Below, one piece after another: positions 24,001 to 30,000 of a DNA stretch of 64,000 bases. The DNA is from Candidatus Binatia bacterium (GTDB taxonomy: Bacteria > Desulfobacterota > Binatia > HRBIN30). Made by a program: the position numbers. The stretch covers positions 77,518 through 141,517 of the forward strand of contig CALAMI010000008.1 of the NCBI GenBank assembly GCA_937925685.1, written 5' to 3'. The first letter of the stretch is position 1. Each line of letters starts with the position of its first letter.

Positions 24001-27000
24001 TTGAGAGCTGGTTACATTCGTCCGCTGGTGTTTCTCGGCGATGGGGAAATGGGCTTGGCTGCCGTGCAAAATCCAGTGCGGCTGGCCATCGCCGCCTGGC
24101 CTTGGGGAGCGTACTTGGGCGATGAAGGCATCCGGCGCGGGGTGCGGTTAAAAACGTCATCCTTCCAACGGATGCATGTCAACACCTTTATGACCAAGGC
24201 GAAAGCGGTGGGTAACTATGTGAACTCCATCCTTGCAGCCGTCGAGGCGAGAAAGGCGGGGTACGACGAAGCCATGATGCTCGATACTGACGGTTTCGTG
24301 GCTGAGTGCAGCGGAGAAAACCTTTTCATTGTGCGTAGAGGCGTGGTGAAAACCCCCCCGCTCACGTCCGTTCTGGAAGGGATCACACGTGCCTCGGTGC
24401 TCAGCTTGCTCGAATCCATGTCGATTTCCTGGGTGGAGGAACGGTTCACTCGCGACGAAGCATACATCGCCGACGAAGTGTTCATGACCGGGACAGCGGC
24501 CGAAGTGACCCCAGTTCGCGAAATCGACGGGCGAGTGATCGGTGCAGGAGTACCGGGACCAATTACGCGGGCGCTTCAAGAGCGTTTCACTGCCGTCGTA
24601 CGGGGGGAAGTGGAAAAGTACCGCCACTGGCTTACAGCGGTGACCTGAGCCGTAAACACTTTTGGTGCAATTTGAATTGACAGAGTTGGATGATCCGATT
24701 ATAAGCCCGCTGCCTGGATGTGTGTGGTGCGGAGGAAGAGCAAAGCGCCGTGTGGCGGGCCTTGGCGACGGGGGACGCGACGGAGGAACGGGGAGTGAAG
24801 GGTAAAGTTAGCCTGAGGGTGGTTCGATGCGCCATCGTCACCTTGGTGGCCTCTGTCAGCCTGATGCCCGCACTGCGTGCTGAGGTGACTGTAGAACGCG
24901 GCAGCTCGATCCTGATTTTCCCCAAAGTGATTTCGGACCCCGACGGATTGCTGACCCGCGGGTTCCCCGTGGAGACGATCATCCAAATCTCGAATACGTC
25001 GAACTCGTTGGCATTTGCCCATTGCTTTTACGTCAACGCCGCGCCGCTGGATCCAAGGCAACCACCAGGTCCTTTTAACCCTCCGCAATGGCAAGAGGTC
25101 GACTTTGACATTGTGTTGACCAAGCAACAGCCGACTTACTGGGTGGTCGGTCAAGGGCGCAGGGTTGATCCGACTGACCCTCAGTGCAGCCGGGTGCCGG
25201 CGGTGCTGAATTGCCCCAACGCGGGATTCGATCCTGGAGCTATTCCAGCGGTGCCGCCAAATTTCCAAGGCCAGCTCGTTTGCATTGAGGTTGACGCTGC
25301 GGGCGCTCCCTTGAACGGGAACAGACTCAAAGGTGAAGCGACTTTGATCACACCCGCTGCGACCACAGTTCAAGGTGTGACGATGCGCCTAGGTGAAACA
25401 AGCAAGTACAATGCAGTGGGGATCGTGGGATTGAACACGGATACCAATTCCAACGATGGCGACTTGAGACTTTGCCTTGGAGGGGGGCCTCGACCCGGTT
25501 GTCCCAGTGGGGCGGAGTACAATGGCTGCCCAGATGCGGTGATCGTGAATCACTTCGCGGAGCGGGCTACAATGCCAGCATTGCCCCCAGGGGACATTGG
25601 CAATTCGCGCGTGGATACAGAGGTTACCCTTGTGCCGTGTACCCAGGACTTCGAGAACCAGCTTCCGGGCAGCGTTGTGGTGCAGTTTCGCGTGACCAAC
25701 GAGTTCGAAAACCTCTTTTCAGCTAGTACGACGGTTACGTGTTGGTCGACTTTCCGCCTCGGGGACGCGGCTCGCGTTTTCGACATCAGTTTCCTCGGCA
25801 CTCGTTTTGCCCAGACTCGGATGTTTCCCGGTGGCCCTGAGCAACCTGGTTTTGTCGGGGTTTCCGAGGAGTTCTACAACGACGGAAGAGGAGTGCTTTC
25901 CAGGGCCGCACTCAACCTGCATGTCGAAGGGGAGCGTCCGGGGGGAGATATGATCACCATTCCAGAGGTGGCACCATGAACCGACGCCGCTGTCTTATAA
26001 CCGTAGTGGGCGTGTTTTGGGCTGTCGGTTCTGCGTGGGCCCAGCAGGTCGGTGCTGACCGGGCCGCTGCGATGCTGGTCTTCCCGAAAGTGGTGGTCGA
26101 TACCGCTAATAGTGCTGGCCGTGGTCGGTTGGATACGTTGATCCGCATCAGTAACACGCTGAACAAGCCAATCCGCATGCAGTGTTTTTGGGTCAATGCA
26201 AACGGCCACTGCTTCAACGCGCCCGGGATCATTTGCGACCCTACGCTGTTGCCTCGAGACAATCGTTGCCCGGCAAACTCTGTGTGCGTCCCCGGTTGGC
26301 AGGAGACGGATTTTATCGTGCAGTTAACCGCGCGGCAGCCGGTAGCGTGGCTTGCGTCCATGGGGGCAACGCTGTGTAGCGATATGGCCGATCCAAACTT
26401 GCCCTGTTTTCCGATCGGTGGTGCCGGCAGGCCGAGTCCGACAAACAATCTCGAGAGTCGAGTTCCTGCAGTGCAGGAGGATCCTTTTGTTGGAGAGCTA
26501 AAGTGCATTGCGGTGGATCAAAACGACGTGCCCATCGAGGACAACGGCCTTAAGGGGGAGGCCTTAATCGTTCGCTCGGATGTGCAAATCGGTTCGAACT
26601 TCTTTGACGTGCGCGCCTACAATGCAGTCGGGATTCCAGCTCTTGCGGGCAGAAACAACCGTGACAACGTGTTGGTGCTGGGCGGAAATGGCGCCGAGTA
26701 CGCGGGCTGCCCAAACGTATTGATCTTGGACCACTTTTTCGACGGGGCCGAAGACCCCGTTACGCGGCAAAGCATCAGCACGACGCTCACGTTGGTTCCG
26801 TGCACCGAGGATTTTCTTACGCAACGGCCGACGGCGATGCCGATTCAATTCCTGGTGTTCAACGAATTTGAGCAGCGCTTCTCGACTAGCTTCCGTGACT
26901 TTAATTGTTTCCGGGAATTTCGTCTTTCGGAAATCGACACGCGGGTGCCGACGTTTTCGATCTTCCACGCCGGGGTTTCTGGCACGCTTACGGGCCAGAC

Positions 27001-30000
27001 GCGCATCCGAGGGGTCGTGACGAACGATCGTACGCGGGGGCAGACAGTTCTTGGCGTTGCTGAGGAAATTCGTTCCGGTGGCGGCAGCGCCGCATTCCAG
27101 TTGCACATGCAAGGCGCGCGTCCGCAAAGCGACTTTGTGTACCTGCCTTTTCAGTGAGAACGCAATGAAAATCGGCTCTTTTAGCTTGACAAGGTGGAAC
27201 CACGCAGATATAAGGCCGTCACTCAATCGAGGGGTTCGCCCTGGCGAACACGGTGCGGCGTGATCGAAAGGAGGAGGGTAATGCGTAGGCAGCGAGGGCT
27301 AGTTGGGCTCATGGGACTCGCGGCGTTGGTCGGTTGGGGTGTTAATGCCCGATTGGCTGAAGCCCGCGTCACTACGGAGCAGAGCGCATCAATTCTGGTG
27401 TTTCCGAAAGTGATTGCCACCGCGACCCGGGACACGGTAATCCAAATCACGAACACCTCGAATAACATGCGGCATGCGCACTGCTTTTACGTGGATGGTT
27501 CGCCGGTTAATCCGGAACTTCCGGTTGGTCCGCTCAATCCTCCCCGATGGGTTGAGACAGACTTCGATATTTGGCTCACGCGGCAACAACCTACCCACTG
27601 GGTGGTGTCGACCGGTCGGTGGGACGATCCCACAGACGACTCTTGCCGCGCCGTTGCGTGTAACCCCGTTACAAGCGGCGGAAATAATGGTACTGCAGAT
27701 TGCTGTGACGCTGGTTTCGACCCTGGTCGAATTCCGCCGATGGGGCCAAATTTCACTGGGGAGCTAAAATGCATCGAGGTGGATGCGTCGGGCTTCCCGG
27801 TTCCTGGAAACTCCTTGAAAGGGGAGGCGACCTTGGTGGACCGCGGGCAAGCGACCTTTGACGTGTCGAAGTACAACGCCATTGGCTTGAAGGGCTTTGA
27901 CACGAACAACATGGACGGAGTGCTTTGTTTAGGTGGGGGGGTGAATGCGTCTTGTCCATCGGGGCCGGAGTACGAGGCGTGCCCGCAGACGTGGATGTTG
28001 GATACCCCCTCCGTGAATGCCCCACATCCAGTTATTGAGGACGCTACTACGGGCGTGGAGCTCACGGTGGTTCCGTGTTCCCAGAATTTCGAGACCCAGG
28101 AGCCAACCTCCGTTACACTTCAGTTCGCCATTACAAACGAGTTTGAGCAAACCTTCTCGGCCTCTACGACCATTTCTTGCTGGGCAACTCAGGCGCTGGA
28201 CGACATTAACCCGATTTTCGACGTGACGGCTGTGGGTGGTAACGTGTTGCTGACCCGAGTGCGCGCGGCCGCGGCCACTCCCCGAGGTATTATGGCAGTA
28301 GTCGAGGAAACAGTGTCGCATAGAGCGCTTGGCCAAGCCCGCGTGGCGCACAATCCTCACAACAGCTTTGCCGATCAGTCGGGCCAGGACTTAATCATCA
28401 TTCCGGCTGACCAGATTCAGGCCCCGTAAGGGTGCGGTGCAATGGGTAGAGAAGGGCGACGTCCTAGGAATGGGGAAAGGAGAATGACGATGCGACAGGT
28501 GCGATGGGTTGGCTGGACAGTGGCTGTCGCCGCGGCGCTAAGTGTTGGGCCGAGGCCAGCCGCACGAGCGGATATCGCATCCGATAAGCCCGCGGCGGTC
28601 GTGGTGTATCCGAAGGTCCAGGTGACAGGCGCAGCGGGGGTTAATACCACGATTCGTTTGGCGAACACCAACACAACGAATCCAATTCATGTCCACTGTT
28701 ATTACATCAACGCGAGCTCCTACTGCGTCGGCGGTTTTAACGCCGGCCAAAATTGTACTCTCTCACCCACGGTGTGTACGGGCGGGGGGGTGTGTTTGCC
28801 GAGTTGGCAGGAGACTGATTTTCGGGTTGTACTCACGGCGGGCCAGCCAATTGAGTGGGTAGCGTCGGACGGACTAGCTGACGCGAACTTGCCGCTGCCG
28901 CGCGGTGTTTGCGTTCGCAATCCAACCCGGCAGTGTGGTTCCGATGCGGATTGTAACCCATTCCCCGGCGGGACTTGTACGCAGAGCAACGCTGGTACGC
29001 GGATTCCGCCAGTCCCAGACGACCCATTCATTGGCGAGCTACGCTGCATCGCGATCGATCCCCAGGGCAACCCAATTCCCCGCAACGAGCTCAAGGGGGA
29101 AGGGCAGATTGTTACGGTGACGGCCGCTGGCCCGGTGCCGGGCGGTAGCATCGACGTTGCCGGTTACAACGCGATCGGGATTCAAGCAACCGGGGCTTCT
29201 GACGGCGTCGCGAATCAGCTCACCCTCGGGCCAGGTCGGAGTGGCGAGTACAACGGGTGCCCGAACTACTTAATTGTCGATCATTTCTTCGATGGGGCAG
29301 CGAACCCGGTGCCCGGTACCGCTGCGACAATTTCGACTAACCTGGTGCTGGTGCCCTGTTCGACGGACTACCTACGGCAGATCCCTGGCTTGGCCGTGGC
29401 GCAGTATCTTGTGTTTAACGAGTTCGAACAGAGGTTTTCGACCAGTAGGGCGGTACGCTGCTACCAGGACATGCCTCTCAGCCGTATCGATACCGCGAAT
29501 AGCCTTCGTTCGATTTGGAACGTAAACGTGGCTGGGACTTTAACCGGTCAAACCCGCGTGAACCCGATTGGGGTGCCATCGAGCAACCCACCGTCGATTC
29601 CTAGTGGGTTGTTAGGGATTGCGCTGGAAACGCATACCGGGTTAGTTACCAAGAGGGCTGCTTTCAACGTGCACATGGCGGGCGATCGAGACCAGCCCGA
29701 CGTGATGATTATCCCGTAGGGTCGAAGTTGGTGATTTGGAGAGTGGGCCGACCGTGGGGCAGCGCGGTCGGCCCTTTTTTTTCAAGTGGATTCCGGGAGA
29801 TTACGAAGTACGAAGTCGATGACGTCGGCTTCGAGACGGGTGCCATGGAGGCGATTGTATTCCTGAATCCCAGTTGGGCTCGTGACGTTGACTTCGGTGA
29901 GGTAATCTCCGATCACATCGATGCCGACGAAATAGAGGCCGTCGGCCCGTAGGCGCGGCGCCAGGGTAGCGACAATCTCGTGGTCGCGGGCAGTGAGCTC

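Follow-up and report, generated by a model that had tools for sequence, protein, structure and literature searches.

Paralogous secreted proteins A and B of Candidatus Binatia are encoded in pairs, duplicated as pairs and very probably work together

The 64,000-nucleotide stretch analysed here (hereafter the window; contig CALAMI010000008.1, positions 77,518 to 141,517, assembly GCA_937925685.1, Candidatus Binatia bacterium) carries four paralogous genes in the order A1-B1-A2-B2, all on the + strand, whose products belong to a previously undescribed protein family. The A and B subtypes of this family very probably work together, and at roughly 55% we rate the reading that they constitute an abundant extracytoplasmic A:B heteromer, a binding or scaffold module of the envelope or cell surface. 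The joint action of the two subtypes, which had been proposed in the original prediction from the window sequence, is supported by covariation between cognate partners, by single-chain fusions of A and B, and by promoters specific to each pair.

All coordinates given are those of the whole window. A1 (24795..25979, +) encodes an A-type subunit of 394 amino acids with a Sec signal peptide and a mature form of about 38 kDa, pI 4.6 and 9 cysteines. B1 (25976..27157, +) encodes a B-type subunit of 393 amino acids with a signal peptide and a Cys-rich insertion, and its start overlaps the A1 stop in the sequence ATGA. A2 (27281..28429, +; A-type, 382 amino acids, signal peptide, mature pI 4.5, 11 cysteines) and B2 (28484..29719, +; B-type, 411 amino acids, signal peptide, 13 cysteines in the mature form) are both represented by positional orthologues in further genomes of Binatia. 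As the original prediction had noted, A1 and B1 overlap at ATGA, and 54 nt separate A2 from B2. No fifth paralogue was found in the 64-kb window by tblastn.

Two subtypes and their copying as pairs

A1 and A2 are 45% identical by BLASTP (47% by global alignment) and B1 and B2 42% (46%), whereas all four A-B combinations are 32–33% (37–38%) identical. The identity matrix of the four proteins, with 42–47% for A-A and B-B against 32–38% for A-B, is thus cleanly partitioned. The motifs by which the subtypes had originally been told apart are present in the alignment: ISNTSN/ITNTSN, AHCFYV, LCLGGG..CPSG.EY, NEFE(N/Q).FSAST and CW in A, and EY.GCPN.LI.DHFFDGA, FNEFEQRFSTS, TLTGQTR, HM.G and, next to the HC block on its C-terminal side, a Cys-rich insertion in B. 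The two subtypes are no peculiarity of this locus: 217 full-length homologues from other genomes also split into two clusters (108 A and 109 B), with a mean identity of 47–49% within a type versus 37% between types. Hidden Markov models (HMMs) specific for A and for B differed in score by at least 81 bits for every full-length copy. Four-protein identities, homologue clustering and HMM scores therefore agree on the two predicted subtypes, and A and B are, as judged by their sequences, distant paralogues about 37% identical to each other.

The pairing rule was investigated in 72 genome loci found with A-type peptide patterns, in which every family copy was annotated, and in 80 metagenome loci found with B-specific patterns to remove ascertainment bias. 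The A-ascertained genome loci comprised 24 AB, 23 ABAB and 3 ABABAB arrays, plus arrays cut by contig ends; the family genes in the genome loci were always on one strand, with A first. In the B-ascertained loci, all B genes preceded by 1.3 kb or more of sequence (86/86) had A directly upstream, and B was located downstream of 86/86 A genes with room for it. The expectation that homologues elsewhere occur as A-B pairs therefore holds nearly everywhere as an (A->B)n rule, with five minor exceptions that are taken up below. Two other loci, L011 and L039, are only apparent exceptions, being ordinary ABAB arrays broken by frameshifts. The split genes are B1 and A2 in L011, and A2 and B2 in L039; these frameshifts are likely to be assembly or sequencing indel errors, not pseudogenes.

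At least 38 of 74 classified loci (window included) are the same core locus as that of the window, with the gene order topA-trmFO/gidA-glnE-ilvE-[ABAB]-gshB(-)-rsmE(-)-prmA(-), and this synteny is kept down to an A1 orthologue identity of 54%. Cutting a UPGMA (unweighted pair group method with arithmetic mean) tree into 3–6 clusters was uninformative owing to outliers, and nearest-neighbour and positional analysis was used instead. The nearest neighbour in other genomes was a gene of the same class for 35/36 genes at position 1 of the core array, 35/35 at position 2, 20/28 at position 3 and 22/28 at position 4. For two further types of pair, X and Y, the corresponding counts were 7/9 each for X1 and X2, 6/6 for Y1 and 5/6 for Y2. 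Type X pairs follow genes for a dockerin/PD40 protein, a cohesin protein and a UDP-glucose/GDP-mannose dehydrogenase, whereas beside type Y pairs two ABC exporter genes and the gene of an FG-GAP lipoprotein run in the divergent direction. The own-class nearest neighbours indicate that the A/B split is older than all the duplications and that pairs were copied as units. The duplicated two-gene module that had been predicted from a single array is thus borne out, by positional orthology across genomes, as a pair copied as an ancient unit. One metagenome-assembled genome (MAG; CAYVUV...) carries at least five family loci.

A third A-B pair is present in the core loci L027, L033 and L036 (ABABAB). 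Of these, L027 and L036 have a short B1-A2 spacer (60–66 nt) without the conserved promoter described in the next section, which suggests that the additional pair was inserted mid-array.

Promoters, covariation and fusions of cognate partners

A generic promoter scan, which demands T at the last −10 position, gave no promoter, and the TATAAG promoters were found by direct pattern search. The strict motif TTGACA-N16-18-TATAAG has two matches in the 64 kb versus 0.00 expected, one upstream of A1 and one upstream of A2. The promoter of the A1-B1 unit (24677..24705, +), located in the ilvE-A1 spacer, is a near-consensus sigma70-type promoter with a 17-nt spacer, and that of the A2-B2 unit (27186..27214, +), located in the B1-A2 spacer, is a near-consensus promoter with the same hexamers and spacer length. 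Across genomes, the motif was found upstream of core A1 in 28/36 loci and of core A2 in 29/31, and never upstream of B genes or of the X or Y pairs. The core promoters match the consensus at 11 of 12 positions; their hexamers are invariant while the 17-nt spacer drifts. The A2 leader ends in an invariant strong Shine-Dalgarno (SD) sequence, GAAAGGAGGAGG, just before ATG 27281. No conserved RNA structure was found in the A2 leader, and no Rfam family was found in a scan of 23500–30900. A strong intrinsic terminator (29745..29774, +; 10 of the 12 base pairs of its stem are G-C, and T8 comes next) closes the array in the interval from B2 to the convergent gshB and likely acts bidirectionally, and no comparable terminator is present between the four genes. 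As each core pair has its own promoter, each pair would form its own transcription unit, probably a strongly expressed one, and these pair-level transcription units again mark the pair as the functional unit.

The promoter also bears on the start of A1. GTG 24795, which is preceded by a GGAGG SD sequence, is preferable to the longer open reading frame (ORF) from 24720, because the conserved promoter ends at 24705 and the longer ORF opens only about 8 nt past the predicted transcription start. B2 may start at ATG 28490 instead of 28484, given that the SD sequence ends 1 nt before 28484. Long antisense shadow ORFs on the − strand cover the four genes (24699-25373, 25954-26508, 26564-27226, 27487-28065 and 28720-29151). 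In related loci such ORFs sometimes exceed the true gene, and they misled a longest-ORF gene caller: its recurrent family f1 was rejected as the antisense shadow of the family genes themselves, and its families f12 and f17 were discarded too, since their Arg-rich sequences and their positions pointed to antisense shadows of ilvE and glnE.

The evolutionary rates of A and B covary between cognate partners. In a mirror-tree comparison, the distances among A proteins correlated with those among their partner B proteins with r 0.80, against a permutation maximum of 0.12. Only 9 loci were usable for a partial-correlation mirror tree controlled for ilvE and gshB, and the comparison was redone on 28 complete core arrays with bootstrap. 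In these arrays the cognate pairs gave r 0.90 and 0.89, the non-cognate A-B combinations 0.81 and 0.81, and the same-type paralogues 0.84 and 0.75. The bootstrap difference between cognate and non-cognate combinations was 0.087, with 0/1000 resamples at or below zero.

Several homologues unite A and B in a single chain. In P0252, a signal peptide, A and B are succeeded by a dockerin/EF-hand-like segment, and B lacks a signal peptide of its own. P0308, P0343, P0272, P0320 and P0328 are lipoproteins composed of the A N-terminal domain, a Pro/Thr linker and a full B, and P0320 and P0328 additionally carry beta-propellers. P0241 and P0254 begin with B and a linker, and a membrane hairpin, comprising a 'GC...TM...RRR' tail and a second hydrophobic helix, leads from there to A. 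In FG-GAP(-CARDB)-A fusions, B is encoded by a gene of its own that comes next. The fusion partners and neighbours include cohesin, dockerin, FG-GAP, CARDB, propellers of the Vgb-lyase and YncE types, and UDP-glucose dehydrogenase, and are all of extracellular or cell-surface types. The window proteins themselves have no cohesin or dockerin domain; cohesin and dockerin occur only in neighbours (L054), and a dockerin/EF-hand-like segment in some fusions.

At 110-4390 of L159, a lipoprotein A'-B fusion gene is directly followed by a full A joined to a Vgb-lyase-type beta-propeller; the next genes encode TPR and FecR-domain proteins, a context unlike the core locus. At 4268-8058, L054 encodes Binatia dockerin- and cohesin-domain proteins. 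The cohesin protein of L054 and some B-type proteins (P0241, P0254) end in a Pro/Thr-rich linker and a 'G-C ... hydrophobic helix ... RRR' tail, which we take to resemble the sorting signals of the MYXO-CTERM type. The MYXO-CTERM-like tails suggest that a surface-anchoring pathway may be present in the Binatia lineage.

Alternatively, A and B might be co-regulated without binding each other, as two paralogous secreted binding proteins with complementary specificities (e.g., lectins, or solute or substrate receptors) whose genes stay adjacent merely through joint need for both products. Each subtype could then work alone, which would be compatible with the invariant polar residues and cysteines common to both, with the arrays that contain an extra B or two A, and with the fusion of A alone to FG-GAP proteins. 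It is harder to reconcile with an A-first order, tight coupling and 1:1 copy number that are near-universal, with rate covariation specific to cognate partners, and with three distinct single-chain fusion architectures, the more so as a B gene follows even the FG-GAP-A fusions. We therefore consider non-binding partners rather unlikely, and an A:B heteromer remains the preferred reading.

Predicted export, fold and cysteines

All four window proteins have a Sec-type signal peptide without a lipobox, and their mature forms are acidic (pI 4.5–5.3) and about 38–40 kDa in size. An N-terminal hydrophobic signal is present in 234/237 full-length homologues, only 8 of which have a lipobox-like match.

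AlphaFold2 models of A1 (pLDDT 88.5, pTM 0.85) and B1 (pLDDT 88.0, pTM 0.88) were confident, and both are all-beta with an identical strand order. As modelled, A and B each consist of two beta-sandwich domains plus disulfides, one domain having the TM1070/ASRT (ASRAH) fold. Foldseek assigned a probability of 1.0 to the match with this fold, which covers only about one third of A or B, and the matching part is an eight-stranded beta-sandwich superposable on TM1070/ASRT. Fusions that contain only HMM positions 25–227 of A point to a two-domain layout with a boundary near A1 residue 240, and the invariant strand-Asn-turn element VQFxVxN(302)EFE suggests that the TM1070-like domain is the C-terminal one. 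Internal repeats were not found when the N-terminal, middle and C-terminal thirds were compared by hhalign. Viral capsid jelly rolls, neuropilin and similar Foldseek candidates were rejected, with TM-scores of about 0.15 and low probability.

The ASRAH superfamily was defined by TM1070 (1nc7) and ASRT (2ii7) and was predicted to bind sugars or small molecules; its cleft is formed partly at the dimer interface, and in every case its domains form dyads or tetrads (De Souza, Iyer and Aravind 2009, PMC2739507). Its markers include a conserved Asn that ends strand 2 ahead of a tight turn. In the present family, a corresponding arrangement in twos and fours is seen in gene organisation alone, that is, in A-B pairs, ABAB core arrays and single-chain fusions. 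Compared with TM1070 and ASRT, A and B have no detectable sequence similarity, are three times larger, and have disulfides, Cys-rich insertions and one more beta-sandwich domain. Both are secreted, whereas ASRT and TM1070 are cytoplasmic, and in place of a second identical chain or a tandem repeat, the proposed partner of each is a diverged paralogue with its own gene. Secreted ASRAH families include two-domain lipoproteins of the actinobacterial cell surface and four-domain amidases of Chloroflexi (PMC2739507). A and B resemble these families, for which glycan binding is predicted, in being extracytoplasmic, in having ASRAH-type sandwiches in multiples of two, and in the linkage of some loci to a sugar-nucleotide/glycosyl enzyme (the UDP-glucose dehydrogenase of the type X loci). 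Unlike these families, in which the dyad or tetrad lies within one polypeptide, A and B are split over two genes, rare fusions excepted; they occur in Binatia, their context includes no amidase, WhiB or glycosyltransferase, and none of the window proteins is a lipoprotein. Against the beta-sandwiches of CBM4, CBM32, CBM35, galectin and GOLD, scores were at the level of fold noise, and in contrast to carbohydrate-binding modules (CBMs), A and B have neither Pfam CBM matches nor glycoside hydrolase partners.

Four cysteines (C77, C163, C245 and C282 in A1) are kept in 396/396 copies. A fifth, C316 in the motif VTC[WF], adjoins the invariant NEFE..FS.S hairpin and is kept in 386/396 copies (97–98% conserved). 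The number of cysteines in the mature region, which ranges from 6 to 49 in total, is odd in 90/107 A and 96/108 B; among C316-bearing copies it is odd in 156/189 A and 173/197 B, and all 10 copies without C316 have an even count. These parities identify C316 as the unpaired cysteine. B-type proteins (P0251, P0247, P0244 and others) take extra Cys-rich insertions at two loop positions, with lengths of up to about 640 amino acids and 29–49 cysteines, and odd cysteine parity is mostly kept in them.

The C316 equivalent was surveyed in the fusions P0252, P0254, P0241, P0308, P0343, P0272, P0320 and P0328. It is absent from 10/11 C-terminal domains of single-chain A-B fusions versus 11/135 unfused representatives, although the fusions stem from about three independent architectures, so these losses are not independent events. 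FG-GAP-A fusions with a separate B gene retain C316. C316 could possibly form an interchain disulfide or act as a ligand-contacting thiol, and its loss on fusion is suggestive of an interchain disulfide made dispensable. A more specific version of the heteromer would be a split ASRAH dyad or tetrad in which the free cysteine of each subunit locks A to B by an interchain disulfide or covalently captures a ligand, so that fusions could discard it, the whole being a phylum-defining envelope component of Binatia with no characterised counterpart; this combination we regard as speculative, and in its entirety as unlikely.

An unpaired cysteine conserved at 97–98% might instead belong to an active or metal site, as it would if A and B were thiol-dependent enzymes or handled copper or another metal required by these methylotrophs, with the free cysteine and a conserved His, Glu or Asp as the site. 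Many invariant acidic and polar residues, together with His253 and His376, are common to A and B, and the ligand pocket of TM1070 is lined by a His and a Cys (PMC2739507). The 10/11 fusion C-terminal domains that lost C316 keep the fold nonetheless, which argues that the thiol is not indispensable, and no metal-related or redox genes recur beside the pairs. Such a catalytic or metal-handling role thus appears improbable.

We hold it no more probable that the pairs are building blocks of a repetitive, S-layer-like surface lattice or matrix instead of a soluble binding complex. A lattice would be in keeping with the strong constitutive-type promoter and invariant strong SD sequence, with acidic secreted proteins conserved throughout the class at a fixed housekeeping locus, and with neighbours that have cohesin, dockerin and C-terminal anchor-like tails. 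Each mature chain, however, contains 9–13 cysteines, and S-layer proteins are not usually so rich in cysteine; an SLH or any other anchoring domain is lacking, the window proteins end without an anchor, and several divergent pairs per genome fit diversity of binding better than a single lattice. A toxin, defence-system or phage origin was rejected on context and absence of matches, as was a binary toxin of the PirA/PirB type, for which neither structural similarity to PirA/PirB nor a mobile or virulence context was found.

The A:B heteromer and its place in Binatia

For the preferred reading, that of an A:B heteromer, we infer physical heteromerisation, stoichiometry, location (periplasm or surface) and ligand as follows. 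A and B would be exported by their Sec signal peptides and would then assemble outside the cytoplasm into a heteromer, either a dyad or a tetrad, the latter formed from both core pairs or from two copies of one pair. This assembly would mirror the dyads and tetrads of ASRAH proteins, with a ligand cleft partly at the subunit interface. The complex may serve Binatia as a binding or scaffold module of the envelope or cell surface, and the bound ligand would most likely be a glycan or another small ligand.

Several observations weigh against this reading. Five loci depart from the pairing rule in gene count: a lone A (L034), an AAB array (L056), and ABAB arrays with one or two extra B (L037, L042 and L043). 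The covariation of rates between adjacent genes could also be explained by pairs being exchanged or converted as units. C316 is not lost in a coordinated manner between partners (both have it in 165 pairs, A only in 5, B only in 3, and neither in 1), and an obligatory A-B disulfide through the free cysteine is not supported by this partner-wise presence and absence. The kinship with ASRAH is at the level of fold only: no Pfam match to ASRT/DUF1362 was obtained at E<=1, 1nc7 and 2ii7 were unmatched at E<=10 by full-length and C-terminal-domain profiles, and neither the signature SHEshChhN, which is confined to the ASRT-like family, nor the Trp at the start of strand 1 appears to be conserved in A and B. 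The core neighbours glnE, ilvE and gshB offer no functional clue.

The family is large. Among clusters at 90% identity, at least 980 database matches were obtained for A1 and at least 2,241 for B1, and at 50% identity the family has 1,708 representatives, 621 of them with E<=1e-30. Every named homologue is a 'hypothetical protein', and the named ones are from Candidatus Binatia MAGs, the closest genome being Bacterium HR30 (HRbin30; 89% for A1). A few contigs are labelled otherwise (Myxococcales, Margulisiibacteriota, Patescibacteria, Mycobacterium). These are MAG contigs, several of them short; several come from studies that also produced Binatia bins, and some show the Binatia core synteny. 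They are likely mislabelled or mis-binned; the family is apparently found almost only in Binatia. None of the four window proteins had a significant family match in Pfam or NCBIfam (scanned at E<=1) or in PADLOC or PHROGs (E<=0.1). The sole Pfam match at E<=1 was a weak and partial one of A2 to GCS (E 0.057, 13 bits versus a cut-off of 25). PDB sequences gave no match with three profiles, the C-terminal-domain profile included, and a hit to 5bnc (heme-binding MSMEG_6519; E 0.011) was rejected as noise, as it vanished with a deeper profile.

Methylotrophy, alkane degradation and carbon monoxide oxidation have been linked to Binatia, globally distributed bacteria that are still uncultured (PMC8262859; bioRxiv 10.1101/2022.03.11.484050). 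Across the sampled Binatia genomes, the family described here is large, with several copies per genome, one syntenic core locus and strong expression signals. Its function is a guess, and the finding has no direct bearing on a long-standing open question. As a natural case of two paralogous genes that form an obligate module, the family is unusually clean: its genes were duplicated in pairs, partners covary specifically with each other, and Rosetta-stone fusions occur. If the proposed assembly is true, the ASRAH fold would gain a heteromeric form that is split, secreted and rich in disulfides. A and B are a well-defined target for structure determination, and may provide markers for Binatia in metaproteomes.

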